A stretch of 63,179 bases of DNA, filler included, from Octopus bimaculoides (GCF_001194135.2; 9 parts of 8 records of this genome joined end to end with filler, not necessarily neighbours in it); one strand, 5' to 3'; shown: positions 14,107 through 58,342, numbered from the whole stretch's first letter. Program-made: numbers and translations. Notes: a model not told the origin generated them from the sequence alone.

Positions 14107-14158
14107 GGACGTATATGCATATTTCAGGAGATCTTACTCCTTCTTCAGCACCGCATCC
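14107..14158 (-). ncRNA. Minimal type I hammerhead ribozyme motif, core intact
   Basis: GGAUGCGGUG-CUGAAGA-AGGAG UAAGAU CUCCU-GAAA-UAUGCA-UA-UACGUCC: both core boxes, perfect 5-bp stem II, palindromic stem III region (AUAUGCAUAU), UH site. Confidence 0.7.
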
Positions 14159-14459
14159 AACTTATTAATCATCCATGAACACATTGCTTAGGCAATATTT
14201 GTTTCAGCTCTTTATATTCTGAATAAATACATTGAATAAATAGAGTCAAGAATGAGTGTGTTTAGACAGCTATTTAAATAAACACTATAAATGTTTCGAT
14301 ACAACATAAATCCACATATACACAGGATTTAAATTAAGCAACGGTTTACCTGTATAAAGGGATCCAGTTGTACCTCCTCAGATGGTATATAATCACTGTC
14401 CCTGTTAGTAAATCTTTGACTTTGATGCTAACACACATACATATGTAGATATCTTTTCC

Positions 14460-14960
14460 TCTCCCCTTCACAGCTCTCTGTCTGTCTTCCTCCCTTGCTC
14501 ACGTGGCTCCAACGTGACCATCGGCCATTTTTCTTTCTTCACCTAACTTGTGTCTCATTCTTTCTTCCTCTTGCAGCTGGACAAGGAAGACGTATTCTTG
14601 TCTGTCACCTGTCCAAGCTTGTTACTTCGCATTCGCCACCACAGCCTTGTTTAGGCTTAGCAGCCCTTCCTGTTTGTTTTCACTGTCCTGTTTTCATCAC
14701 CAATTTTGACCCTCTGCAAAATCCCAAATTTTATTTAATTTGCTTTGTGGGAGTAACTGTTTTACTGAAGGCATATCTTGTCGTGAAATGCTCGAAATAC
14801 GGATTAGAAAAACAGCCGACAACTAGTGAAGGGTCGTTCTTTGTGCTGTTTGTCTTGTTTTCCATTTGTTTCTTTCATTGTTCGCAAAAAAGTGTATATT
14901 CCATATCCTCGTATTTTGTATTTTTTGTCGTTTACGTTTTGTGATGTCCTGTGCCCACAT
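14460..14960. mobile_element. Repeat family E, opposite orientation to 9330; HHR-like motif 14757-14815(+)
   Basis: Homologous to 9330-9870; CTGTTTTTA-CTGAAG-GCAT...ATGC-TC-GAAA-TACGGAT-TAGAAAAACAG. Confidence 0.75.
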
Positions 14961-15351
14961 ATGCATATGTAATGTGTATACATGCAAGTATGTATGTATA
15001 CATATGTATATATGCATATATATACATATATTATTACTATTATTATTATTATCATTCATATATATATATATATATATATANNNNNNNNNNNNNNNNNNNN
15101 NNNNNNNNNNNNNNNNNNNNNNNNNNNNNNNNNNNNNNNNNNNNNNNNNNNNNNNNNNNNNNNNNNNNNNNNNNNNNNNNNNNNNNNNNNNNNNNNNNNN
15201 NNNNNNNNNNNNNNNNNNNNNNNNNNNNNNNNNNNNNNNNNNNNNNNNNNNNNNNNNNNNNNNNNNNNNNNNNNNNNNNNNNNNNNNNNNNNNNNNNNNN
15301 NNNNNNNNNNNNNNNNNNNNNNNNNNNNNNNNNNNNNNNNNNNNNNNNNNN

Positions 15352-15572
15352 NGTTGGGGGGACAAACACAGACATACAAACACATACACACATACATATA
15401 TATATATACATATATACGACAGGCTTCTTTCAGTTTCCGTCTACCAAATCCACTCACAAGGCATTGGTCGGCCCGAGGCTATAGTAGAAGGCACTTGCCC
15501 AAGATGCCACGCAGTGGGACTGAACCCGGGACCATGTGGTTTGTAAGCAAGCTACTTACCACACAGCCACTC
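15352..15572 (-). mobile_element. SINE family A, 3' end in gap
   Basis: Reverse complement of family A head and body. Confidence 0.9.
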
Positions 15573-15727
15573 ATATATATTGTTAAATTAGGGGACAATA
15601 AAATAAGTACCAGTTATTAGCCCTCATCCGAAATTTATGGCCTTGTGCTAAAATTTGAAACTGATATTAACCCCATCCTCCAGTACTTATTTTTTCTTAA
15701 GTCCATACTTTCTTTAGTATAACAAAA

Positions 15728-15885
15728 GAAGTACTTCATCTAGTGGTTAAGGTGATACATTGCTCATGATTGCAAGATTGTGGTTTCAATCCCCAGACGG
15801 GGCAGTTTGTTGTGTTCTTGAGCAGATCACTTCATTTCATGTTGCTTTGCAATCACTTTAATATCAGACATGTGGCACGCCATGT
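15728..15885 (+). mobile_element. tRNA-derived SINE family G, 5' part
   Basis: CTAGTGGTTAAGG...GGTTTCAATCCCCAGAC...GTGTTCTTGAGCAGATCACTTCATTTCATG, as at 30031. Confidence 0.65.
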
Positions 15886-16514
15886 ACCCACACGGGCAAT
15901 ATCATTATTAACAAACTACCTCCACCACAACTACCTTCAATATACTACTACCACCATCACCACACCACCACCAACAACAACATACAATTACTGCCCCCAC
16001 CACCACTAATACCACTGCAGGCCCTTGTCACTGCCACTAACACCACTATCATCACTGCCATGGCATCAACAACAACAGCAATGATGACCCACAACACCCC
16101 ACCCAAAACCCACCACCACCACCATCACCATCTACAAACTACAGCCATGGCCATCACTACCGCCATCGACATCCAGTAATTATGATGATATTTTGGGTTA
16201 ATTGCTACAGGTCTAATGGCATGCATAAACTACTATACAAAGTCCCCCATTACAATTCTCTTTCCTCTCTCTTTCTCTCTCTCTATCTTTCTCTCCACCC
16301 TCTTCTACCTTCCCACCTTCTCAGGCACTTTTCCCTCCCACTCTGTTAGTTTACATTTCTTTCTATCGCTATCTTTCCTTTCTTTTATCAGTCACATATA
16401 ATATATACATACATTCACACACACACACAAACACACACACATAACACTCCTACATACGTTCACACATATGTACATATATGTCTGTGTGTATGTGTGCATG
16501 TGTGTATGTGTGCA

Positions 16515-16545
<31 letters not shown>

Positions 16546-16847
16546 GTATATAAAATTTTGACTCAGCTCCATATACATGAGTGTGTGCGTGTTTAATGTT
16601 AAATTGTTTTTATATACAATTTCACAAAAAAACCTAACATTAATATAACACTCACTTTTATATATATATGAGATGTACGTATATACAAATATGCGCCTAT
16701 ATGTATGAATACACACACACATATATATTCATATTTGGGTGTGCAAATCAAAGGAAAGAACATTACATTGTGCAAAGTTTTTATTTTAAATATAAATAAT
16801 ATATATACACATATACATATGTAATACTTACATACATACATTCATGT

Positions 16848-16885
<38 letters not shown>

Positions 16886-16934
16886 GAGTGAGCTCAATCA
16901 GATGATGATCATGTATATATGTTAACAATTGTGT

Positions 16935-17960
16935 CTCAACTTGTAGTTTCACACACTCAAAATTATATGAGATCACTCTGACAATTTCATGAATAGAAAG
17001 CTAGGTTGCGGATGTAGGTATACCTTCTGAACTTGATTATTGTTGGCCAAAACCAGTCATGTGATGGTAGCTGTTGCAGATAAGATGGAAAAAAATAGAT
17101 TGAAAAACTACTGTAATGTAAGGTGGAGTAGCCAGTCCTTGCATATGGCCATTGAAACAAGGGAAATTACTCAGTGTAGCTCATAGCATCTGATTTCAAC
17201 TAGTTTATTTTGTATAAGCTGGAAATTTTCTAGGAAGAAAGTCTTACAATGACAGCTGTTAAATAATACTTAGACTCTCATATTGAGAGATAGCAATAGC
17301 TGCTTCAACATCTTGAGATTCTCATTTAAACAAAATTTACAACTTCATGAAGCATGAAAATATGGAGTTGCTTTACTGACAATGTTCCATGTTATTGAAG
17401 ATGTTCAAGTCCTTGGTCCTTAAGTTCTCAAATCAGCTGGGACAGGGGAGTGGAATTTTCCCTTTTCCTTGACTTAAAAGAGTTGAGTGTTGATGAGAGT
17501 GATATTTGAAAGTATTCACAGTAAGTCCCCTGCAATTTTTTTATGACACATTCCAGGGGTGTTATGAATTTTTGGTATGACTTCTTTGAAAAGACAGTGT
17601 GCCCTGAGTGGGTAGGCATATGAATTTTACAATTGCAAGTTGATTGTTGTGGTAGCATCAGTATAAGTACATGTTTATGATTGTAGCACATTATCTGGGG
17701 ATTGATATTCTCCAAGCAAGAATAGTTCACTTTAACATTAGGTGCATTGAAAAGTCTTAAGAAATGTTGCCTAGATAGGATTCAGAAATTCATAGGTATG
17801 ATCATGTCATGGAGGGGATTAATTCGGATTATGTCTCTCTTTTTTTTTCTCAGATGTGGAATCAGTAGGCTATTGTCTATGTAAATTGACTTCTCAATAA
17901 AACCACTTCTAAGCACCACCTTGTTATGTAGGGGGTGGTCTTGTTGATGAAGTCACTCTT
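16935..17960 (-). mobile_element. Degenerate Penelope-like element, linker + GIY-YIG end + 3' region
   Basis: Frameshifted VKVNYSCLENI, TCNCK...RAHCLFKEVI, and LNMR.*VLFNSCHCKTFFLENF (cf. PLE VKISYSCMPN, CNCR..CPL.G.CL, LLNKRSE.F.KCRH..KF.L). Confidence 0.7.
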
Positions 17961-18064
17961 TGAGAATATATAGACTTTATCCAAAATTTCGAATTTTTAC
18001 AAGCTTTATTTTGTCGACTTAAAAAATAATATTAAATAATATAGAATAAGTAGTTATTTCAAAG

Positions 18065-18270
18065 TTTTGCCACGAGTGCTGTTTGGGGGAGGTGGGGATG
18101 AGTTGATTACATCGTCCCCCCCAGTGTTCAACTGGTACTTATTTCATCGACCCCAAAAGGTTGAAAGGCAAAATGGACTTCAGCGGAATTTGAACTCAGA
18201 ACGTAGTGATGGGCAAAATACTGCTAAGTATTTCGTCCAGCATGCTAACAATTCTGCCAGCTTGCTGCCT
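18065..18270 (-). mobile_element. SINE family B
   Basis: CAACTGGTACTTATTTCATCGACCCC...GGAATTTGAACTCAGAACG...TCTGCCAGCTTGCTGCC. Confidence 0.85.
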
Positions 18271-18288
18271 TAATATATAATAAATAAT

Positions 18289-18750
18289 CCTTTCTATTAT
18301 AGGCACAAGGTCTGAAATTTGGGGAGAGGGGTTAAGTTGGTATGACTTCTTTGAAAAGACAGTGTGCCCTGAGTGGGTAGGCATATGAATTTTACAATTG
18401 CAAGTTGATTGTTGTGGTAGCATCAGTATAAGTACATGTTTATGATTGTAGCACATTATCTGGGGATTGATATTCTCCAAGCAAGAATAGTTCACTTTAA
18501 CATTAGGTGCATTGAAAAGTCTTAAGAAATGTTGCCTAGATAGGATTCAGAAATTCATAGGTATGATCATGTCATGGAGGGGATTAATTCGGATTATGGT
18601 ACTGGTACTCAACTGGTACTTAATTTATTGACCTCAAAAGGATAAAAGCAAAGTTGACCTTGGCGGAATTTGAACTCAGAACATAGCGACAGGTGAAATA
18701 TTGCTAAGCATTTCAGCCAATGTGCTAACGATTCTGCCAGCTCACCGCCT
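18289..18750 (-). mobile_element. SINE family B carrying a 262-bp foreign insert (18337-18598)
   Basis: Tail 18289-18336 and body/head 18599-18750 join into one SINE; TAATATAT(A/G)ATAAATAAT on both flanks as probable TSD. Confidence 0.8.
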
Positions 18751-19348
18751 TAATATATGATAAATAATATAAAGCAACAATGTGCTTAATTAGTTTTTTT
18801 TTAATCAATTTCATACTCCAGTTATTTCCCTTCTCTCTGTCTCTCTCTTTTCATCTGAATTCAGGCAATAATGAGAACCACCACATCATTGTTAAATCTG
18901 TTAGAAATAACATTGTTTTTCAAAAGAAAAAAATACATATAAAAAAAACAGCCAAATCTCTTTCAACAACATCTTGATTATGTATATAACATGTATTTCA
19001 TCTTTTTATTATGCTAAATATTCTTGGCCAAAATATACTAAGTACTTTCTGCCTGTTAATTTGTCCCCATTTTGTGGACAACAAGGAGGAATAGTCTACA
19101 CTGCTGTGGTAAAATTATGACCAAAATGTGTCCATAGTTATCCAACATTTCTGAAACGACCATCAAATTCACCAGTTTTGCTAAGTATATTAATTAATTC
19201 AGCTATGAATTAATTTTTAGTATCCTGAAATTACCTCCCCTCCCTCAATTAGAGTTGCTAACAATTAACTAGATGTGTTTTGTTTCTCTATCAGCAACAG
19301 AAATTTCAATAAAATTTAGTATATATTATGTATGCTTACATACTTATA

Positions 19349-19723
19349 GTGGAGGCGCAATGGCCCAATGGTTAGGGTAGTGGACTCGTGGTCATAGGAT
19401 CGCGGTTTCGATTCCCAAGCCAGGCATTGTGAGTGTTTATTGAGCGAAAACACCTAAAGCTCCATGAGGCTCCGGCAGGGGATGGTGGCAAACCCTGCTG
19501 TATTCTTTCTCTCACTCTTTCTTCCTGTTTCTGTTGTGCCTGTAATTCAAAGGGTCAGCCTTGTCACACTGTGTCACGCTGAATATCCCCGACAACTACG
19601 TTAAGGGTACACGTGTCTGTGGAGTGCTCAGCCACTTGCACGTTAATTTCATGAGCAGGCTGTTCCGTTGATCAGATCAACTGGAACCCTTGTCGTCGTA
19701 AGCGACGGAGTGCCAACAACAAC
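19349..19723 (+). mobile_element. SINE family C, full length
   Basis: GTGGAGGCGCAATGGCCC head to GGAGTGCCAACAACAAC tail; CAT(A/G)CTTATA on both flanks. Confidence 0.9.
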
Positions 19724-20229
19724 ATGCTTATAAATTCACTTTCGCACAATGCAGTGAGAATGAATTTGAGTAATTGTTAACCAGATTAATAACCATAATT
19801 TACCTTATGGTATGGATGAATTAACTGTAACCTCCCTATTCTTATAAACACAAAGTATCTATTTAATTCGCTGTGTCAGCGTATGTGTGCCAAATCACAT
19901 GTGTGTATGCTTATATCTTTGTGTAAGTTTGTACAAGCAAGAGTACATGTACCATACAACCTAAGCAAGGGTGTTTAAATATCCATATCTGCTAACAGTT
20001 GCACTTAATACTTTTTTCACTGTATTGTATATTTGTCAGTTTTTGTATCTAATTTTTATTGATCTTCTATGATAATGAAGCTGTGTCTCTTGCTTTGCTG
20101 CTTTTGTATACGCATACTGAGATGAAAACTTGCAGAACAGACGTCATCTTAATGAGATACATCTTGTAATCACCTAAAGAGATACATCTACACTGAAAGA
20201 TACTACTAAACCAGTATCCTACCTGTGAG

Positions 20230-20266
<37 letters not shown>

Positions 20267-20293
20267 AATTCAAATAAATGGATAAAATTTTAA

Positions 20294-20530
20294 AGTATAT
20301 AATTATAATTAAAGGCTCTGGAATACCAGGCCTATACACTAGAAGTAAAATACCCACAATCCACTCCAAATCAGTTCTCTTTTTCTAACCCTAGGTCGGA
20401 TGCGAGGAAATAGGCAAGAAGATTTACAAAATTTCAGATAATTCTATATCTTAAGATTTCGTGCTCTTAAGCATATAGGCGCTGGCACTCCAGAGCCCTT
20501 AATTATAATTATATTTTATAATTATATACT
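20294..20530. mobile_element. MITE-like element with ~43-bp AT-rich inverted ends
   Basis: ATAATTATAATTAAAGGCTCTGGAATACCAGGCCTATA vs TATAGGCGCTGGCACTCCAGAGCCCTTAATTATAATTAT. Confidence 0.7.
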
Positions 20531-20621
20531 TAGAATATATATATGTATATATATGTGTTCGTTCCCTTAGTGCTAAGTATTAGACTTAAAAACCTTTTAA
20601 GACGCACATATATACTAATCA

Positions 20622-21445
20622 AGTGGCTGTGTGGTAAGTAGTTTGCTTACCAACCACATGGTTCCAGGTTCATTCCCACTGCGTGGCACCTTGGGCAAGT
20701 GTCTTCTACTATAGCCTTGGGCCGACCAAAGCCTTGCGAGTGGATTTGGTAGATGGAAACTGAAAGAAGCCCGTTGTATATATGTATATATATGTGTTCG
20801 TTCCCTTAGTGCTAAGTATTAGACTTAAAAACCTTTTAAGACGCACATATATACTAATCAAGTGGCNNNNNNNNNNNNNNNNNNNNNNNNNNNNNNNNNN
20901 NNNNNNNNNNNNNNNNNNNNNNNNNNNNNNNNNNNNNNNNNNNNNNNNNNNNNNNNNNNNNNNNNNNNNNNNNNNNNNNNNNNNNNNNNNNNNNNNNNNN
21001 NNNNNNNNNNNNNNNNNNNNNNNNNNNNNNNNNNNNNNNNNNNNNNNNNNNNNNNNNNNNNNNNNNNNNNNNNNNNNNNNNNNNNNNNNNNNNNNNNNNN
21101 NNNNNNNNNNNNNNNNNNNNNNNNNNNNNNNNNNNNNNNNNNNNNNNNNNNNNNNNNNNNNNNNNNNNNNNNNNNNNNNNNNNNNNNNNNNNNNNNNNNN
21201 NNNNNNNNNNNNNNNTATGTATGTGTGTGTATATGTTTGTGTGTCTGTATTTGTTTCCCCAACATCGCTTGACAACCGATGCTGGTGTGTTTAAGTCCCC
21301 GTAACTTAGTGGTTCAGCAAAAGATACCGATAGAATAAGTACTAGGCTTCCAAAGAATAAGACCTGGGGTCGATTTGCTCGACTAAAGGCGGTGCTCCAG
21401 CATGGCCACAGTCAAATGACTGAAACAAGTAAAAGAGTAAGAGTA
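20622..21445 (+). mobile_element. SINE family A split by gap
   Basis: Head 20622-20780, tail 21215-21445. Confidence 0.8.
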
Positions 21446-21489
21446 TACATTTACGACAAGAGATCTGATTCACAGTTCAGTGGAAGCCA

Positions 21490-21770
21490 TACTAACGCTT
21501 GAACAGTGCTTTTTACATGCTACCAGCTCAGGTCCTGGTCAGACGGCACTAGCATCGCCCACGACTATGATTTCACTCAGTTTGACAGGTCTTCACAAGC
21601 ACAGCATATCACCCATCAGTTGAAGGGTGCTTTAATGGGCCACCTACATGACACAGGCATTGGCCACGACTACAATCTCACTTGGCTTGATGGGTCTTCA
21701 CAAGCACAGCATATCTCCAAAGTTTTCGGTCATTGCCTCTGTGAGGTAATCTACCTCAATAAACTCTGCC
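21490..21770 (-). mobile_element. RTE LINE ORF end/3' UTR fragment with internal duplication
   Basis: ATCTCACTTGGCTTGATGGGTCTTCACAAGCACAGCATATCTCCAAAG matches 52545-52620; motif present twice. Confidence 0.65.
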
Positions 21771-22191
21771 TGTCTGAAAATTAATGATGATGATTATGAT
21801 GAAGATGGTAGGGGTGGTGGTGGTGTTATTTGTCATGAGATCTACATCCTGTGTATTTCAGTTTCCAGTTCATTGTCCTACCCTTCTTCTCTATGATGTT
21901 TTGGTTTAGTTTAGAAGAGATTATTGAGATGTCTGCCAGTCAGAGTACAGTTATTTTCGTCACAGTCCTTCTTATAATTATAAATGGGTAGTTAGTTAGC
22001 CTTGATCTTCTAATCAGTCTGTACAGACATACCCTAGATAATTACAGCCATGTCATTGTCCTTCACCTCGTTTGTTATTTGCTTATATCACTTCCTAAGC
22101 GTCAGCAAATTGCTTGGATGACGAGCTTGTCATTTCATTCCGCCGTCATCACTGTTCAACATCCACTTTTCTACACTTGCATGGGTTAGGT

Positions 22192-22966
22192 CAGTGGTTC
22201 TCAGCCAGGGTCTATATAGCCCCTGAGAGTCCATAGAAGATTTTGGGGCGGTCCACACTGCAAAATGGTAAATTGGGTATCCACAATAGTATTTTAAGGG
22301 CCCCTGCAAAAAAAATTTGGTTTCTGATGTATCTATTGGTATGTATTGCAAGAATTTGTAAGCCTAGTACTAAACCAGTGGAGGCGCAATGGCCCAGTGG
22401 TTAGGGCAGCGGACTCGTGGTCATAGGATCGCGGTTTCGATTCCCAGACCGGGTGTTGTGAGTGTTTATTGAGCGAAAACACCTAAAGCTCCACGAGGCT
22501 CCGGCAGGGGATGGTGGCGAACCCTGCTGTACTCTTTCACCACAACTTTCTCTCACTCTTACTTCCTGTTTCTATTGTACCTGTAATTCAAAGGACCAGC
22601 CTTGTCACACTGTGTCACGCTGAATATCCCCGAGAATTACGTTAAGGGACAACGTGTCTGTGGAGCACTCAGCCACTTGCACGTTAATTTCACGAGCAGG
22701 CTGTTCCGTTGATCGGCTCAACTGGAACCCTCGACGTCGTAAGCGACGGAGTGCCAACAACAACAACATTGCAAGAAACAACTAGGTTTGTTTCTCTTAT
22801 AATTTACATAGTTCAACCAATACAAGTTAATGTGTGAAAAACAAAATAAGAATTTTCAAAGAACCTTCTACAAAACTAGTTTTTAAACATTGAATGGTTA
22901 TGGGGGTTCACTAGAATGAAATAATAATCGAAGGGGTCTATAGCTAAAAAATTGCTGAGAACCCCT
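22192..22966. mobile_element. hAT (Charlie-like) non-autonomous element
   Basis: CAGTGGTTCTCAGC ... GCTGAGAACCCCTG termini; 8-bp flanks GGTTAGGT / GGGTAGAT (decayed TSD). Confidence 0.8.
22378..22767 (+). mobile_element. SINE family C inserted in the hAT element
   Basis: Full-length near-consensus copy. Confidence 0.9.
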
Positions 22967-23196
22967 GGGGTAGATGGAATTTGTCATGGCAAGATTTCCA
23001 CAGCCGGACGCCCATCCTGTTGCCTACCCTCACCTGTTTCCAAGCAAGGTAATATTCCTCAAGGTCAGACATGTTTGCATGGAAGTTTAGAAACAAATGA
23101 CACTGCATGAATAACAGTGACACTCATTTACAACCATCACATGAAGTCAAGGCAAGGAGATAGTAGCACACATACACACACACACACACACACACA

Positions 23197-23273
23197 GTGG
23201 AGGTGCATGGCTTATTGATGAGGGTGTTGAACTCATAGTCATAAGATTTTGGTTTCAATTCTGGACCAGGTAA
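23197..23273 (+). mobile_element. SINE family G head only
   Basis: GTGGAGGTGCATGGCTTATTG...GGTTTCAATTCTGGACCAGG. Confidence 0.55.
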
Positions 23274-23744
23274 TGCCACCACCACCATGACCACCACCAC
23301 CATGACTACCACTGCTACAACCAGCAGCTTCACCACCAGTGCAATGACCACTACCCCTACAACCAGCAATGCCAATACTACTGGTCCAATCACCACGTCT
23401 AACACCAGAACTGCTAGCAGCGAAACCACTACCATTGCCATTGTCAAAACCACCATCATCCACCTCTACTTCTATCGCTAACATCACTTGTACCACGAAC
23501 CCCATCACACCACCATCAGTACTACCACCATCACCACCACCACCACTACCAACAACACCCTGACTAGTAGCAACATACCATCATTGCTACCAGCTCCATG
23601 GAGACCTCCATGTAGTGGCTGAACCTTTTATTTTCCCAGGGTAGATGAAATAGAGTACCAATCAAGTACGAGGGTTGATTTAATTAATTGTTCTCTCCCT
23701 TCATTTCCTGCATTTCTGACATTGTGCTTGGGTTTACATTAGAA

Positions 23745-23975
23745 ATTATTATTATTGTTCAGTAGTTTTATTTTTATAACGTGCTTTCACTTCACTACCG
23801 AGCGCAGCTCTGTGCGCCTTGGCTATGTGCTGTGGTTTGCTGTGATACTCTTATGGTTCCTGTATTGAAAGTGTTTTGCGTAGGATGTATGCAGTGCCCA
23901 GTAGTGCAATTTTCTGTATGTTATATATATTTGTAAGTCCTGGTGTTTTTGTTATGTATTTGTCTGAATATTTAT
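23745..23975 (-). mobile_element. R4/Dong-like LINE 3' end
   Basis: YITKTPGLTNIYNIQKIALLGTAYILRKTLSIQEP* followed by ~100-nt UTR and (AAT)n tail. Confidence 0.75.
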
Positions 23976-24158
23976 TATTATTATTATTATTATTATCATC
24001 ATCATCATTATGTAAATGTAATTATTCCTTCTAGACATTTCTTTAATTGCAATTAAAATTCTCAGTGGAGAAAACAAACAAACAAAAAACATGTATTATT
24101 AAATTTTTTTATCTTGTATTTTGTATTTTACTGATGAAAAATATCAACTGTCAATACA

Positions 24159-24196
<38 letters not shown>

Positions 24197-24280
24197 GAAT
24201 AAAATATGACCTATAATATAAATAAAATATATATATATGCATATATATATAACATAAATAAAATATATATATATATATAT

Positions 24281-24358
24281 CATCATCATCGTTTAACGTC
24301 CGCTTTCCATGCTAGCATGGGTTGGACGATTTGACTGAGGACTGGTGAAATCGTCCAA
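24281..24358 (-). mobile_element. RTE tail fragment
   Basis: (CAT)n CGTTTAACGTCCGCTTTCCATGCTAGCATGGGTTGGACG. Confidence 0.85.
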
Positions 24359-24400
24359 GCCATATATACATACATATATGTACATACTTACATTTATATG

Positions 24401-24451
<51 letters not shown>

Positions 24452-24619
24452 GCATATATGGGTACAGGACATCACAAAACGTAAACAACATGAAATACGA
24501 TAACGACATATATATACGTATATATGTATATGTAATATATGAAGTAATAAATCTCTCTTAGTTTGAATTTTATTTGTAGGGGATGGTATGGGTACCCCAG
24601 CCATCGAGGAATCTTTAAA

Positions 24620-25440
24620 CTCATCTCTGACATCATCGGGGCATGTTTGACGGTATATATTTTTCCTCATTGCACAACTGAAGTAACATTTCACTATGAC
24701 AGTGGAGAGGATGGAATCTGAGTATAGTGAGGCAATCTTAATAATCAAATTCTGTCTTGCTATTTATTTTTTAATAATTCTTCTCTGAGGTACCTCAATT
24801 CTCAGAATATGTTATTTGGTATAGAAAGAACATAGAAGGCAAAAAGTACTGTGCAGAGGTAGAAAATAGAAAGATAATATCTAGGTCTTTGAACTGGCAA
24901 GTTCTGAGAATCCAACAGCTCATCCTGGAAACTACTTTTTGATGGAGACTCTCAGATTATTTCTAAGTGTTTGACACTGTAAACCTACGAGAGGTCCTTC
25001 AGAGGAAACAGATTATGGTTATTTAAGTACTTCCTATATTCCAAAGCGGATGAACTCAACTTTTCCAACAATTTATTTGGTCACCATTGCTGAAACTTAG
25101 AATCTGTTGTGAAAACTTTTATGACACTTGTTATGCTGTTGATGTCATCTGTAAAGAGGTGTGGTCCCAAGAGAGCCCTTTGAGGTCAGTACTACTTGAT
25201 AGGAAATACTAAATCTAGGGCAACAATTTTCCATGCATTTCTATGTTAGGTATTTTTTCTCAAAAGAATGCTTCAACTTGTTGGAGTTCAGGTATATGAA
25301 TTCCGTTTTTGAGCCATCTCTCAAAATTGAAGATTTTGTCAAAGTGGTGTAGAAACTGTGTGAACCCCTGTGATACCATACCATACCATACCATACACCT
25401 GCTGGCTCTAAGATATAAAGTTTTTGTTTTAAAGTGGTCT
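24620..25440 (-). mobile_element. Highly decayed CR1/L2-group LINE RT remnant
   Basis: HFDKI...NGIHIPELQQVEAFF, PQRALLGPHLFTDDIN (cf. PQGSVLGPLLF..YIND), SVKHLEII (cf. VKDLG) in order, with stops and frameshifts. Confidence 0.55.
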
Positions 25441-25482
25441 AAATTAAAACCTTCCATCGAAATTTCATGTTGACTTAGGGTA

Positions 25483-51610: not shown

Positions 51611-51864
51611 TCTGTAGTAATAATAAGGATAATAACTGTTCGATGGAATTTATAAATATCTTAATGCATCGCTACGCGCGTTTCCACAAATCACATGTTA
51701 CTTAAGATCATAGTCCGTACTCCTGAGATGATTCGAGCGAAATAGCTGATAGAATAGCTGTACAAATAGCTGGTATCGCCAGTTGGCAACATTAGGTTAT
51801 ATACCGGCATAATAGAATAGATTTTATGTACATATTCAAGACGTTTCCCGTAAACAAACTTCAA

Positions 51865-51955
51865 GGATATGTGGCACCTCGGGTAAGTGTCTTCTACTAT
51901 AACCAAAACCTTTTGACTGGATTTAGTAGCTGGAAAGTGAAAGAAGCCCATCGTT
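51865..51955 (+). mobile_element. SINE family A fragment
   Basis: GGCACCTCGGGTAAGTGTCTTCTACTAT...AAAGAAGCCCATCG. Confidence 0.65.
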
Positions 51956-51965
51956 TATATATATA

Positions 51966-52977
51966 TCATCATCATCATCATCGTTTAACGTCCGCTTTCC
52001 ATGCTAGCATGGGTTGGACGATTTTGACTGACGACTGGTGAAACCAGAAGGCTACACCAGGCTCCAATCTGATTTGGCAGAGTTTCCACAGCTGGATGCC
52101 CTTCCTAACGCCAACCACTCTGAGAGTGTAGTGGGTGCTTTTACGTGCCACCGGCACGAAGGCCAGTCATGAGGTACTGGCAACGGCCACGCTCGAAATG
52201 ATGTATCTTACGTGCCACCTGCACAGGAGCCAGTCCAGCGGTACTGGCAACGAACTCGCTCGAATGTCTTTTCACGTGCCACTGGCACAAGTGCCAGGAA
52301 AGTGACGTTGGTAACGATCACGCTCAAATGGTGCTATTTACGTGCCCCCGACACGGAAACCAGACAGCTGGTGCTCTGGCAACGATCATGCTCGGATGGT
52401 GCTCTTAGTGATCTACTGGTACAGGTGCCATCACGATTTCGCTTTGGCTCGCCCCAACAGGTCTTCGCAAGCGGTTTTAGTGTCCAAAGATGGAATGTTA
52501 CGCGTAAGTGTGCTGGCTACATCCCACGCAGAGGCCTTGGATTTTGATCTCACTTGGCTTGCCGGGTCTTCTCACGCACAGCATATTTCCAAAGGTCTCG
52601 GTCAGAAGTCATTGCCTCGGTGAGGCCTAATGTTCGGAGGTCGTGCTCCACCACTTCATCCCAGGTCTTCCTGGGTTCCCTCAACCGCTAGGATGTGGCA
52701 CTTTTTCACAAAGATATCCTCATCCATTCTCGCCACATGTCCATACCAGCGCAATCGTCTCTCTTGCACACCACAGCTGACGCTTCTTAGGTTCAACTTT
52801 TCTCTCAAGATACTTACACTCTGTCGGGTATGCACACTGACATTACACATCCATCAGAGCATACTGGCTTCATTCCTTGCAAGCTTACACATGTCCTCAG
52901 CAGTCATGGCCCATGTTTCACTGCCATGTAGCATGGCTGTTCGTACACATGCGTCATACTGTCTGCCTTTTACTCTG
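51966..52977 (-). mobile_element. RTE LINE 3' part: ORF end, ~580-nt structured 3' UTR, (GAT)n tail
   Basis: VQERRLRWYGHVARMDED, ...DRDLWKYAVREKTRQAK* (stop ~52550); parent of the many tail-only copies. Confidence 0.9.
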
Positions 52978-53360
52978 NNNNNNNNNNNNNNNNNNNNNNN
53001 NNNNNNNNNNNNNNNNNNNNNNNNNNNNNNNNNNNNNNNNNNNNNNNNNNNNNNNNNNNNNNNNNNNNNNNNNNNNNNNNNNNNNNNNNNNNNNNNNNNN
53101 NNNNNNNNNNNNNNNNNNNNNNNNNNNNNNNNNNNNNNNNNNNNNNNNNNNNNNNNNNNNNNNNNNNNNNNNNNNNNNNNNNNNNNNNNNNNNNNNNNNN
53201 NNNNNNNNNNNNNNNNNNNNNNNNNNNNNNNNNNNNNNNNNNNNNNNNNNNNNNNNNNNNNNNNNNNNNNNNNNNNNNNNNNNNNNNNNNNNNNNNNNNN
53301 NNNNNNNNNNNNNNNNNNNNNNNNNNNNNNNNNNNNNNNNNNNNNNNNNNNNNNNNNNNN

Positions 53361-56014
53361 TGTATTGCTCTTGACACGCAGAGTAGGTTAGTGCGTATAT
53401 CAGGTTCTCCGAAGTACATGTGAAGCTGCTTTTCACTGTGAAACGTTGTCCCTGTTTGAAGGAGAACTCTAATCCCTCGATTATATTGATGCATATCCCT
53501 CAGTTGGGTCTACCGCATTTTTTACTGACGGCTTCGGTGTTGTTGTTGAGCGTATTCGGGCTTATGTTAGGAGACTTTTCATAGATTTGGGCTGTCTCTT
53601 GCTTTTTATGATGATGTGTGTTTGGAGGATTAAGTTCATTCTGTGGTCCTTTTTTAGCAGGGGAATGTTTTGAAGGATGGTGTCGAAGGCTTCATTGTTA
53701 AGAGGGTTGTGTGTGGAGATGTATGGTACGGCTTTTGTTTGTAAATCCTTCTTTTATTTGGGATGTTTGAGTTCGTGGATGTTGAGTTGTAGGGCACGTT
53801 GAAAGCATATGTCAATTAGTGAAGGTGGGTAGTTCCTGGTGATGAGTGTATCCTTTAGCTCATGTTGTCGTGTGTCCCTGGTGCTTGCATTAGAAACTAT
53901 AGTACAGATCCTTTTTACTAGGTTGAAGGAGATATTCATTCTGGTGTGTCTGCGGGGGCATGATTTGAACGGTAGATATTGCTGAGTATATATCTGTTTC
54001 TATTACGTTGTTAGATTTCTTAATGAAGATGTCGGGGAAGGGAAGTTGTTGATGGCTATATTCCATCGTGAATTGAATGTTTACGTCAGGTCCATTTGTA
54101 AGTGCTTGGGATTCTTAAAGTCTCTCTATACTTTCATGCCAAAGAATGAAACAGTCATCCAGGTATCTCTTCCAGTTATTTTCTATGTAGAGTGAGAATG
54201 GGCTGCCGTATTTTTCTCGATAAAGACTAATTTCTAGATATCCCATGACTAAGTTAGCAAAGGAGGGGGCCATTCTCGCACCCATCGCAGTCACCGATTT
54301 TTGTCGACAGAAGTTGTCTTTGAAGACGAAGTAGTTATTCTTCAAGATGAATTTTAGCCCTTCTATCACGAATTCTTTTTTTGATGCGATGTGGGAGTTC
54401 GTTGGTGTAATTCTCTAGCCAGAATTGAATTGCCTCTATTCCTAGGTTGTGGAGGATGTTGGAATAGAGGTTGACTACATCGAAGGATACTAGTAGGGTG
54501 TTTTTGTTTATCGTTTCAGGAAGGTGATTGAGCATATCCAGGTCGTCCCTTATGTAGCTTTTGACATGCTTGAGGAATGGTTTTAAGAGGATATCTAAAA
54601 AGTTACTGAGGTGGTGGGTTTTGCATGCGGGACCTGCTATTATAGGTCTCAATTTGAGGTCATTAGGAGTGGGAACTTTGATTATTATGTCTGTTGCTTT
54701 GCTGCATGTGTTATTTATTTTCTCACTTTTGTGTATCTTGGAAATACCGTAGAATTGACTGGTTTTACTTTTGAAATTGGTCATATAGTCATATTCTTCG
54801 TCGATGAGCACTTCTCTGTATAGGTTTAATATGGATTTTAGGTATCTCGGGCCTTTTCATAATATTTTGTGTTTTCTAATATGGATAGTACTAGAGTTAT
54901 ATAGTATACCGTGTCCATTAAGACAACTGCACTCCCTTTATCAGCCTCTTTGATTGTTATTGTTTTATCATCTTTTAATTTCTTCAGCTCAGCCCATTCT
55001 TTTTTGCTGAAGTTTGGTTTGTGTTTTTGTTTGTGTATCTGTTAGAATGGATAATTTGAGATGTATTTACAGAAATGATCAAGAGTTTTGTTCTTGCCTT
55101 TTGAGGGAGTGTAGTTACTTCTATTTCGGACCAACGATTCGTTTTCGTTGTATTCGTCGTATAGCTCCTCAGCGAGTCGTAATTTTCTACAGAATTCCGC
55201 GATGACTTCTTTCATTTCGTTGTAGTTGGGGCGTTGTGGGGTGGGTCTAAACTTGAGCCCTTTGGAGAGTATATTGATTTGGTTTGCTGTTAGTTCTTTG
55301 TAAGTTAGATTGATAATTTTTTATCACTTTTGGTTCCTCCTCTCTGTTTGGTGCTGTCCCGTGTCTCTGTGTTTGCGTATTGGGTCTAAAAAATGAGGTG
55401 GTTGGGACGGCAGCTATTATGTAGCTGTTCCTTGTTGTTGCGGGATGCTGTGCTGTGATTTATGGTGCGGGTTCTTGGAACGGTATTGAAAGGTATGTCC
55501 TTATATCCCATGTTCGGATGTGGTGTTTTAGGGGGCCGTCGATGGTAATTATTGCGTGTGGTACGGGTTTGTTGTGCGTGGTTGTTTAGTAGATTGTTGG
55601 AACGAAAATTTTGTTGGTAACTCCTTATGGGGGGGAGGAAGTTGCAATGTCTATCCTGCGGGTAGTGATTTTTCCTTTCTCTGTTTGAAGTTGGGGTACT
55701 CCCGATATTGTATTGCTGGTGGCTTACAAAGTTAGGGTTAGGTCTTGTATTCTTTTCTTTGGTAGCGGTGATGGTTCCGATTTTTAGACAGGTGTGAATC
55801 AGTGTTTGAGTGTTGTTTTGATTTTCTTAATTTCAGGAAAGGGTTTTTGGAAGCGTGCTCTGTTTGAAATATGGTTTCATAGTTTGAGAACAAAGAGACG
55901 CTTTTCTCCCAGCGTTGGAGGGATTTCAGTTCTTCTTTATCAAAATCCTCTTTAAATAGTTTGGAGATATTCTCTTGGGTCATTTTGTTAATTTCTTGGT
56001 TGATCTCGGGGCTC
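53361..56014 (-). mobile_element. Penelope-like element, Neptune-type, near-complete RT + GIY-YIG ORF with few lesions; 3' end in gap
   Basis: LSKGLKFRPTP, IKEADKG, SKIHK, LRPIIAGP, SFDVVNLYSNI, TAMGARMAP, WKRYLDD, linker KCGRPN*GICINI, NLIYALTYSACQEQY. Confidence 0.92.
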
Positions 56015-56039
56015 AATCGTACACCGTTTATTCTCCCAC

Positions 56040-56385
56040 GTAAAACTCTAGATCAAAGCCATTACAGATGAAACTGAAACACAAAGACGCTTCAGGGAAA
56101 GAATGGCACTGGAAAAAATGAAAATGGAAATAGAGCTTCTAAAATTGAGAGCTCAGACGAATGAAGATAAAGTAAAATCCGTCGATGAAGAGATCAACCA
56201 AGAAATTAACAAAATGACACAAGGCCCCGACCTAGAGAAGTTCTCCAAACTATGGAAAAAGGATTGTGATAAAGAAGAACCGAAACCCCTCCAACGCTGG
56301 GAGAAAAGCGCCTCTTGGTTCTCAAACTATGAAACCATCTTTCAAACAGAGTACGCTTCCATATATGCGTTCGATTCTGGCTAGG
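56040..56385 (+). mobile_element. Inverted (head-to-head) partial copy of the PLE N-terminal region
   Basis: EINQEINKMTQ...DKEE.K.LQRWEKS.S.FSNYETIFQTE.AS in both 56103-56384(+) and 55738-56016(-). Confidence 0.85.
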
Positions 56386-56570: not shown

Positions 56571-57109
56571 TATAGGGTTAATTAAAAAGAATGAACCGAT
56601 TTCATCACGCAATATTTTTATAAGGAAAAGCAGTAGAAAACTCCAGCTAAGTCACAAGTACTTACTCGCAATCAACTTTTATTTCCTGTCTTACAAGTGT
56701 TCAATGTGGCCACCACCTGCAGTACATGCAGCATCAATGCAATAAGAGAATACCTCCCAGACGCGTATCAGCATATCACGACCCACTGAGTACTTCTTTG
56801 GCTGTCTGGTTGAATGCTTTATCGAAGTTTTTCCATCTCCCTTCTATGTCAATATCTTCTGGAATCGCCTCAAGCAAAACAAATTCATTCTTTAGTTTCA
56901 TAATGAACTTGCTTTTGATATGCTGATACGCGTCTGGGAGGAATTCTCTTATCGCATTGATGTTTCCCGTGCTGCAGGTGGTGGCCACATTGAACACTCA
57001 TAAGACAGGAAATAAAAGTTGATTGTGAGTAAATACTTGTGACTTGGCTGGAGTTTTCTATTGTTTTTCCTTATTAAAATATTACGTAATGAAATCGGTT
57101 CGTTCTTTT
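56571..57109. mobile_element. Foldback of two Tc1/mariner 3' ends around an RTE-derived spacer
   Basis: Arms 56571-56777 and 56917-57109; right arm DMLIRVWEEFSYRIDVSRAAGGGHIEH; spacer (-) FIMKLKNEFVLLEAIPEDIDIEGRWKNFDKAFNQTAKEVL. Confidence 0.8.
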
Positions 57110-58342
57110 GAATGGATTAAGTTACANNNNNNNNNNNNNNNNNNNNNNNNNNNNNNNNNNNNNNNNNNNNNNNNNNNNNNNNNNNNNNNNNNNNNNNNNN
57201 NNNNNNNNNNNNNNNNNNNNNNNNNNNNNNNNNNNNNNNNNNNNNNNNNNNNNNNNNNNNNNNNNNNNNNNNNNNNNNNNNNNNNNNNNNNNNNNNNNNN
57301 NNNNNNNNNNNNNNNNNNNNNNNNNNNNNNNNNNNNNNNNNNNNNNNNNNNNNNNNNNNNNNNNNNNNNNNNNNNNNNNNNNNNNNNNNNNNNNNNNNNN
57401 NNNNNNNNNNNNNNNNNNNNNNNNNNNNNNNNNNNNNNNNNNNNNNNNNNNNNNNNNNNNNNNNNNNNNNNNNNNNNNNNNNNNNNNNNNNNNNNNNNNN
57501 NNNNNNNNNNNNNNNNNNNNNNNNNNNNNNNNNNNNNNNNNNNNNNNNNNNNNNNNNNNNNNNNNNNNNNNNNNNNNNNNNNNNNNNNNNNNNNNNNNNN
57601 NNNNNNNNNNNNNNNNNNNNNNNNNNNNNNNNNNNNNNNNNNNNNNNNNNNNNNNNNNNNNNNNNNNNNNNNNNNNNNNNNNNNNNNNNNNNNNNNNNNN
57701 NNNNNNNNNNNNNNNNNNNNNNNNNNNNNNNNNNNNNNNNNNNNNNNNNNNNNNNNNNNNNNNNNNNNNNNNNNNNNNNNNNNNNNNNNNNNNNNNNNNN
57801 NNNNNNNNNNNNNNNNNNNNNNNNNNNNNNNNNNNNNNNNNNNNNNNNNNNNNNNNNNNNNNNNNNNNNNNNNNNNNNNNNNNNNNNNNNNNNNNNNNNN
57901 NNNNNNNNNNNNNNNNNNNNNNNNNNNNNNNNNNNNNNNNNNNNNNNNNNNNNNNNNNNNNNNNNNNNNNNNNNNNNNNNNNNNNNNNNNNNNNNNNNNN
58001 NNNNTCCATTAAGCCATACCATCAAACATATCCACCAAGCCGCAAAACAAGCCTGCCTCCAACACCTCCAACACCTCCAAGCTGCCAACGTTACATCTTT
58101 TCCATCAACCACCACCACCACCACCACCCTATCGCCGCCAGTCAAACATTTTATGCTCAAGTGTTGAGAATGTCTGCAAGCAGCTTTCATCAACCAAATT
58201 TGTGGATGTATTTCGGTTTCAAACCAGCCTTAGCTGCCATTCTCGCTAAAAATATAAACTAACAATCGTTAGCTTCCGAATTCCATGACTCACTAAATTT
58301 TACTTTACCTATATCAACCTACCTATCTTTGTATCTATCTAC

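Follow-up and report, generated by a model that had tools for sequence, protein, structure and literature searches.

The 63,179-nucleotide stretch of Octopus bimaculoides DNA analysed here (the window; nine parts of eight records of assembly GCF_001194135.2, joined end to end with filler and not necessarily neighbours in the genome) contains three short inverted repeats, or foldbacks (FB1, FB2 and FB3), together with remnants of Penelope-like elements (PLEs) and motifs resembling hammerhead ribozymes (HHRs), as listed in Table 1. The window has the character of animal DNA, with many microsatellites, SINE-like repeats and 35 gaps. Foldbacks and other local inverted repeats were called by self-BLAST of the window, and HHR motifs by a descriptor scan paired with shuffled-window controls, in which type I motifs with an exact core occurred 0.08 times per shuffled window and those with at most one core mismatch about 1.9 times. 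In our view FB1, FB2 and FB3 most likely derive from three unrelated PLE families, each foldback being the scar of a single insertion event in which two 5'-truncated copies of a 3' end came to lie head to head.

Table 1. Features of the window, counted from its first letter (SGC, block order cleavage site, GAAA, CUGAUGA; family 2, the repeat family of FB2; ORF, open reading frame; RT, reverse transcriptase).
Feature	Position	Strand	Remarks
FB1 foldback	35965-36233		arms 88% identical over 120 nt
FB1 long arm	35829..36101	-	5'-truncated copy of an abundant HHR-bearing 3'-end repeat (self-BLAST, alignment, contig matches)
FB1 left type I HHR motif	36036..36075	-	CTGGTGA (one core mismatch), GAAA, CAGCTG, TA
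FB1 short inverted arm	36115..36233	+	(CA)-rich tract at end
FB1 right type I HHR motif	36123..36162	+	CTGATGA, 6-bp helix II, GAAG (one core mismatch), TA, 6-bp helix I
FB2 long arm (family 2)	45315..45742	-	428 nt; internal deletion of about 65 nt relative to solo copies
SGC-order HHR-like motif, FB2 long arm	45459..45516	-	core boxes exact, helix I 6/6, helix II 4/4, helix III strand deleted
FB2 short inverted arm	45748..45943	+	196 nt, 89% identical to long arm over 196 nt; starts just before GAAA, cleavage-site block absent; core CTGATGG
FB3 foldback	47927-48098		arms 85% identical over 66 nt
FB3 left arm	47927..47990	-	type I HHR 47947-47980, core exact, helix II broken
FB3 right arm	48034..48098	+	type I HHR 48045-48078, core exact, 5-bp helix II, 3-bp helix I
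Family 2 solo copy, split by 10-N gap	9330..9865	-	SGC-order motif 9540-9594, exact core, helix I 6/6, II 4/4, III 3/4
Family 2 solo copy	14481..14960	+	SGC-order motif 14776-14829, two core mismatches
Family 2 3'-terminal stub, solo	24450..24510	-	about 60 nt, without ribozyme motif
Solo type I HHR	14112..14148	-	exact core, score 12, palindromic helix III
Decayed PLE	53361..56007	-	part of ORF1, RT, thumb, Cys-rich linker, start of nuclease region
Inverted arm of the 53-56 kb PLE	56052..56385	+	ORF1 coding, without HHR
Decayed Hydra-type PLE nuclease region	17240..17780	-	tblastx E 4.5e-7; partly duplicated near 18300-18550

An earlier note on this DNA had described three unrelated foldbacks sharing one geometry, in which the HHR of each arm reads outward from the centre. 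All three foldbacks are present, sequence comparison revealed no significant mutual similarity among FB1, FB2 and FB3, their arms face outward (5' to 5'), and the HHRs of FB1 and FB3 do read outward. The description was wrong for FB2, in which neither a type I nor a type II HHR was found; its family carries the hammerhead blocks in another order. The complete type I core (CUGANGA, GAAA and UH, exact and in order) occurs in both arms of FB3 and in one solo motif, and not in FB2. Helices I and II fold in the right-arm motifs of both FB1 and FB3, and the left-arm HHRs of these two foldbacks are partly broken. FB2 is asymmetric, the 428-nt copy being joined head to head with a 5'-truncated copy of 196 nt. 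FB1 and FB2 are flanked on both sides by (TA) or (CA) tracts, and FB3 adjoins (GATA)n on one side. One arm extends further than the other by about 135 nt in FB1 and by perhaps 10 nt in FB3, with no such extension in FB2.

FB1 belongs to an abundant repeat family. When public runs of two organisms (X1 and X13) were matched to positions 35835-36300 at 80% likeness, 2390 contigs of X1 and 1861 of X13 were recovered. Their majority letters read CTGATGA, GAAA and CAGCTG, and most copies have intact cores; the loss of CUGANGA and GAAA from the consensus, which the earlier note had considered as an adverse outcome, is not seen for FB1, where the majority letters restore the cores. The long arm is longer than first described and runs about 135 nt beyond the common 3' end of the family (35964) into (TA)n. 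At 35964, 36 contigs (X1) and 41 (X13) end in a (TG)n tract, and at 36101, 46 and 33 contigs, respectively, leave into further family sequence. The centre of FB1 (36102-36114) is crossed by at most one of the 2390 contigs and by about three of the 1861. At least five other head-to-head joints occur in the family (36008/36060, 36031/36100, 36047/36100, 36064>36116 and 35985>36186), most of which truncate or lack one HHR. The joints were read from the 15 listed out of 35, and the loose ends from the 24 listed out of 431, with those 'opposite strand' joints excluded that merely switch between the two reference arms. The family thus has a common 3' end with variable 5' truncation and variable junctions, and partial tandems are also present among its contigs. 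Judging from the crossings of the centre, FB1-family copies are mostly solo and the inversion is peculiar to this locus, as the earlier note had anticipated for the case that its ribozyme palindromes were not a class of their own.

Instead of an autonomous PLE, the donor of FB1 might have been a unit of about 295 nt that resembles a retrozyme and depends on PLE proteins for its mobility, so that FB1 would consist of a near-complete, circularly permuted monomer and an inverted stub. This possibility, which we regard as less likely than not, is compatible with an origin as PLE scar and alters the donor only. The long arm of FB1 has no ORF, the outer end of the upstream loose-end consensus resembles positions 35825-35836 (about 11 of 13 letters, by eye), one X13 contig links the distal segment to the 5' flank of the HHR, and animal retrozymes are described as HHR repeats of 150-300 nt tied to PLEs (PMC7761336; 10.64898/2026.07.22.740005). 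Against such a donor, the overlap with 35825-35836 is short and AT-rich, and a joint that goes back by the length of a monomer is absent among the 15 of 35 joints listed. Neither self-BLAST nor the descriptor scan found a tandem HHR array in the window, so that the direct HHR tandems by which retrozymes are recognised are lacking there.

RNA reads add little on cleavage. About 6% of each of two RNA runs was matched, giving 229 and 264 reads on the FB1 region, on both strands, of which only 1 and 0, respectively, had at least 99% identity; 96-98% of them continue into unrelated sequence. The reads point to other family copies inside host transcripts. No pile-up of read starts or ends was seen on the FB1 region in the two runs, although fragmented complementary DNA (cDNA) libraries would largely hide one. 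As a separate observation, positions 36095-36101 and the upstream loose end of the family contain a pyrimidine tract followed by AG, about 20 nt upstream of the HHR, which resembles a splice acceptor, and both FB1 arms start near this tract.

Helix III of the left FB3 HHR reads ACTC-G-GAGT, the same as in HHRs of Hydra-clade PLEs. The core-intact solo HHR that the earlier note had placed at 14107-14158 was recovered at 14112-14148, where its score compares with an exact-core null of 0.08; its helices I and II fold, its fold z-score is -3.5, and the window holds no second copy. The further claim of four or more decayed HHRs was not confirmed: outside the foldbacks and the solo motif, only three type I candidates with at most one core mismatch were found (55172, 44079 and 59449), near the shuffled expectation. 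In Rfam searches, neither hammerhead nor twister models were matched in four scanned sub-regions, the type I motifs in the sub-regions scanned included, nor among the 150 of 304 rows listed for the whole window; the output otherwise consisted of microRNA-like hairpin matches under gathering scores.

The FB2 family shows the same pattern as that of FB1 within the window itself. Copies of family 2 share a 3' end, range from about 60 to 500 nt in length, and are solo at three of the four loci. The foldback arms are truncated copies of dispersed 3'-end repeats lying in microsatellite or AT-rich DNA, with junctions that vary among copies.

The same geometry was found in other animal DNA. Our comparison set comprised 132 PLE loci (808 kb, mostly animal DNA within metagenome contigs and bins), in which HHRs lie mostly on the sense strand and 3 of 52 local inverted repeats (L026, L038 and L040) have an exact HHR core in an outward arm. 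L038 is a two-HHR palindrome with both cores exact, and a PLE ORF follows directly on its plus arm. When five animal-DNA-bearing bins were searched with a core pattern, 222 matches were obtained, compared with 76 for a control pattern. Among the 150 matches listed, ten form five outward-facing pairs of the same family within 2 kb (68-1892 nt apart, spacings all different), and no same-family inward pair was found among these 150 matches or among the 132 PLE loci. The cores of outward pairs are separated by 47 and 64 nt in the window and by 68, 159, 180, 263, 554, about 820 and 1892 nt elsewhere.

One of these palindromes, L135, lacks an ORF and spans 261 bp with two HHRs and arms 99.6% identical; it is flanked by a duplication of 15 bp, and one of its arms bears a tail of 28 nt. 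L135 is 99% identical over 134 nt to L139, which retains between its arms a GIY-YIG remnant above the Pfam cut-off, and for this analogue the arms are PLE 3' ends. In L136 an 82-bp short arm stands beside a nuclease-coding long arm, and in L137 the coding arms reach 870 bp. The series from L135 through L139 and L136 to L137 therefore places ORF-less HHR palindromes at the short end of ordinary PLE insertions. One of two origins offered by the earlier note, the minimal scar of PLE integration, is supported by this length continuum to ORF-bearing PLE ends and by a geometry that is already published. Two side observations concern the comparison material. At G005:C61:5086-18352, a locus from the core-pattern search, 16 HHR cores follow one another on a single strand at intervals of about 400-2300 nt and differ in their helix II loops, an array that resembles a retrozyme or a Terminon, and L081-L132 represent animal PLE DNA within many bacterial metagenome-assembled genome records, some of them megabase contigs, as host contamination of bins.

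The other origin offered was a distinct non-autonomous class, which would amplify as whole inverted-HHR units. ORF-less two-HHR palindromes do recur in unrelated animals (L040, L133 and L135), most FB1-family copies have intact cores, and unitigs under-represent young perfect palindromes. However, many copies sharing one centre, as in a unit-amplifying foldback or a miniature inverted-repeat transposable element (MITE), were not found for FB1, with the reservation that unitigs collapse palindromes: its centre is not common to the family copies, as the contig crossings indicate, and the other joints differ, some of them without an HHR. Only 10 of the 150 matches listed are in same-family outward pairs within 2 kb, all differently spaced, and the L133 and L135 families are found elsewhere in other arrangements. 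We consider a unit-amplifying class very improbable.

The foldbacks could also have formed after insertion by generic template switching during replication or repair on solo repeats, independently of PLE integration. Self-BLAST revealed three local inverted repeats without HHR in the window (56581-57113, 26253-26643 and 7595-7715), one of them apparently made of DNA-transposon ends, as such a process might produce. Template switching is nevertheless an unlikely source, given that all same-family close pairs seen are outward and none inward, that the 3' termini of the element itself mark the limits of both arms, and that in L135 the target duplication encloses the whole unit and the tail is one-sided. 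Still less credible, to the point of being nearly negligible, is an origin as assembly artefacts. The assembly is gappy, and none of the matched contigs spans FB1 from end to end; however, the arms differ at 11-15% of sites, which a single mis-joined read cannot yield, and same-family head-to-head joints occur in independent runs of two organisms.

An origin as insertion scars of PLEs could be explained by the published biochemistry of these elements, in which the GIY-YIG nuclease would nick both target strands and the RT would extend both. By one route, two short cDNAs would be made and then joined, which fits the asymmetric FB1 and FB2; by another, a single cDNA would snap back and copy itself, which fits the near-symmetric FB3. 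The HHR, lying within about 150 nt of the 3' end, would be carried along into each arm as a passenger. All complete arms extend across the predicted cut site, which makes uncut or re-ligated RNA the likely template. Once inserted, the stubs seem to undergo neutral decay.

A comparison between arms showed the cores to be no better conserved than the flanks, with mismatches at 2 of 22 core positions and 21 of 157 elsewhere (p 0.44, a low-power test). A transcript through a foldback contains a single sense HHR with its complement upstream, and forcing the HHR helices would cost 50-59 kcal/mol in the whole FB1 or FB3 RNA compared with 2-10 kcal/mol in a single arm. A read-through transcript is thus predicted to form a long duplex that prevents the single sense HHR from folding, rather than a working ribozyme. 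The suggestion that transcription in either direction encounters a ribozyme and yields a long hairpin is thus half right: the hairpin is predicted, and the only sense HHR would be held in duplex within it. The HHRs of the foldbacks look like passengers, given that core conservation between arms is lacking and that they are predicted to be buried by the hairpin. Production of small RNAs from such hairpins is possible.

Several points weigh against the foldbacks being PLE scars. BLASTN of the FB1, FB2 and FB3 arms against the 132 PLE loci gave no convincing match, and a full-length parent PLE of the three families was not obtained from O. bimaculoides, so that their direct link to PLEs rests on the motif signature and on analogy. 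A target-site duplication is not discernible at FB1, FB2 or FB3, and the one-sided extension of FB1, at about 135 nt, exceeds the published tail of 30-40 nt. The HHR-free foldbacks of the window mean that the pattern could be partly generic. The contig evidence on junctions covers FB1 only, and foldbacks are undercounted in it, since unitigs collapse young perfect palindromes and some records were dropped. If the foldbacks are nevertheless PLE scars, they represent the shortest end of a described spectrum of PLE insertions, with a geometry already in print; such stubs would record the mode of PLE integration, by two-strand priming or snap-back, and show the copying of uncut RNA.

The PLE bodies of the window are decayed. 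Of the three announced in the earlier note, the body at 53-56 kb and the Hydra-type remnant at 17240-17780 were confirmed, and a third was not found. The 3' end of the former is concealed by an N gap (52978-53360), and among named relatives its best protein piece is most similar, in terms of identity, to a protein of Octopus sinensis (70%). The head-to-head inversion reported at its 5' end is genuine insofar as an inverted arm exists, overlapping the minus-strand copy by about 170 nt at 85%; this arm, however, is ORF1 coding sequence without an HHR. ORF1 likewise forms the inverted arm in the relatives L001, L003, L004, L007, L008 and L082. No recognisable HHR lies downstream of the Hydra-type remnant, and a protein search with the ORF at 17.4 kb gave no match. 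Exact or near-exact local duplications are present at 17572-17833 / 18337-18598 and at 9330-9467 / 9478-9530, the latter adjoining the 10-N gap, and are probably assembly overlaps.

As for the HHR-free inverted repeats, the foldback at 56581-57113 has 198-nt arms of 90% identity and a 137-nt spacer; its arms end an ORF that we take to recall the C-terminus of a Tc1/mariner transposase, and the spacer presumably recalls a coding piece of a long interspersed element (LINE). The region 26120-26750 resembles a MITE, its inverted ends being long and imperfect and its middle holding a run of telomere-like GGGTTA repeats, and 7595-7715 is an imperfect palindrome of 121 nt, present as a single copy within the window.

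The hammerhead blocks of family 2 suggest a different ribozyme. Their order is cleavage site, GAAA and CUGAUGA (SGC), with an exact core at 9540-9594 and in the FB2 long arm and two mismatches at 14776-14829. Helix I is fully paired (6/6) in all three long copies, helix II pairs at 4/4 including two G-U pairs, and helix III pairs at 3/4 in two copies and is deleted in FB2. In the controls, exact-core SGC motifs scoring at least 10 occurred 0.1 times per window, and a score of 13 was reached by 1 of 3000 planted-core shuffles. By eye, a candidate helix of 5 bp bridges stems I and II in FB2. A double change in helix I within family 2 is a single case that CpG decay could explain. A second SGC-order family is present at 48171-48341 and 49335-49497 (minus strand), with helix I at 5/6 in both copies, helix III at 4/4 and 3/4, helix II at 1/4 in both, and helix sequences different from those of family 2; across the SGC-order families, helix I and III sequences differ yet stay paired. 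This second family has a GT-rich tail, with a (TA)n end in the first copy, and starts about 70 nt from FB3. Other readings of family 2 were tried and set aside. Read as type II, FB2 fails at helix I. A type I HHR sought upstream of its GAAA fails as well, since a full CUGANGA beside both helices is present in neither long solo copy, and the Rfam twister model did not match the family. The family 2 motif scan of metagenome contigs gave 0 matches.

Types SGC and CSG are non-circularly permuted hammerheads described by Eckert et al. 2023 (PMC10085705), who searched metatranscriptomes, metagenomes and RefSeq; term searches of that text and its supplement gave no link to PLEs, Naiads or octopus. 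Type SGC and family 2 have in common the block order, a short linker between helices I and II and a longer linker after helix III, and they differ in helix II, which in family 2 has 4 bp with two G-U pairs and in related motifs is weak, displaced or absent. Naiad PLEs are reported to be without canonical HHRs. We inspected by eye the last few hundred bases of 14 Naiad consensus sequences in the supplement of Craig 2021 (PMC8557442), with record identity taken from file order. The ends of Obim, Ovul and Esco show SGC order with a 6-bp helix I, four pairs of helix III beyond the core A-U and 2, 2 and 0 pairs of helix II, respectively. Those of Parc, Nbra-3, Hcon, Hpol and Smim (nematodes and spider) read, by eye, as hammerheads of complete type CSG form, with helices I, II and III of 5-6, 4-5 and 5-10 bp and an extra helix of 9-16 bp bridging I and II; four of these five are flagged 'HHR_half_core' in File S5 of Craig 2021. 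Both orders were absent by eye from the ends of Ppac, Ptep, Sdum, Dst-3, Adux and Omin.

In the five bins, the 30 of 62 CSG pattern matches scored contained no convincing case (best score 8), and the 30 of 35 SGC matches contained a single candidate, L148 (score 12), of which L153 is a weaker sister copy. The two (G003:C16) are members of a repeat of about 500 nt that is non-coding, ends in an A-rich tail and has no PLE ORF nearby. Their motif resembles that of Naiad_Obim, with the helix II partner 5-6 nt from CUGAUGA and one helix II pair in L148. The 132 PLE loci yielded no convincing SGC motif. It seems to us an even question whether Naiad-type PLEs carry permuted HHRs, of type SGC in the FB2 family, the second window family and cephalopod Naiads, and of type CSG in nematode and spider Naiads; the CSG half is more secure than the SGC half, to which the window motifs belong. 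Against the SGC half stand a helix II that is weak or displaced, the possibility of CpG decay in helix I, and the absence here of a tie between family 2 and a Naiad ORF. No paper connecting Naiads or PLEs with permuted hammerheads was found by title or abstract, in a search covering few subscription papers. If Naiad-type PLEs do carry permuted HHRs, scrambled hammerheads would be common cargo of animal retrotransposons, type CSG would grow from two known sequences to whole element families, the reported lack of canonical ribozymes in the abundant Naiad clade would be simply explained, and a rare RNA topology would gain a home in animal genomes.

The structure of the foldbacks themselves has close relatives in the literature. 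Inverted pseudo-long terminal repeats, palindromes at head-to-head junctions and a one-sided tail were described for PLEs by Arkhipova et al. 2013 (PMC3846280), who proposed self-priming, and an inverted 5'-truncated copy is given as a general feature by Craig et al. 2021 (PMC8557442, legend of Fig. 2). Biochemically, both strands are nicked and extended, with two RT start sites and insertion from uncut RNA (Frangieh et al. 2024, PMC11167929). The foldbacks share with insertions of endonuclease-positive PLEs the head-to-head junction, the unequal arms, in FB1 an extension at one end, and the (TA)n targets, and they differ in that the copies are cut to 65-430 nt with the ORF gone, the FB1 extension being about 135 rather than 30-40 nt. 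Penelope-13_HM, listed with HHRs on both strands in Files S1 and S2 of Craig et al. 2021, has in common with FB1 and FB3 an outward HHR on both strands.

Non-LTR retrozymes (PMC7761336; 10.64898/2026.07.22.740005) resemble the foldbacks in being ORF-less, HHR-bearing and PLE-dependent, and for the FB1 family a unit length of about 295 nt is conceivable; however, retrozymes are direct tandems with two sense HHRs per transcript, whereas a foldback presents one sense HHR within a duplex. A term search of PMC7229834 gave no instance of 'inverted' or 'Octopus'. Dual minimal HHRs on opposite strands, about 100-700 bp apart and related to truncated PLEs, were reported by Cervera and De la Pena 2014 (PMC4209133). 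Those of Schistosoma mansoni are like the window motifs in being minimal type I HHRs on opposite strands with a long helix II, an extra base after CUGANGA and a palindromic helix III, and differ in belonging to another phylum and in their spacing, the cores in the window being 47 and 64 nt apart and thus under the quoted range. FB3 differs from the listed Hydra-1_Obim HHR, and its parent family was not found. It matches the pattern given for HHRs of the Hydra clade (atgg / ctga(a,t)gat / gaa actc-n-gagt / cca; Craig 2021, File S2, PMC8557442) in the helix I ATGG/CCA, in CTGAAGA followed by one base and in the helix III ACTC-G-GAGT, and likewise lies tens of bases from the 3' end.

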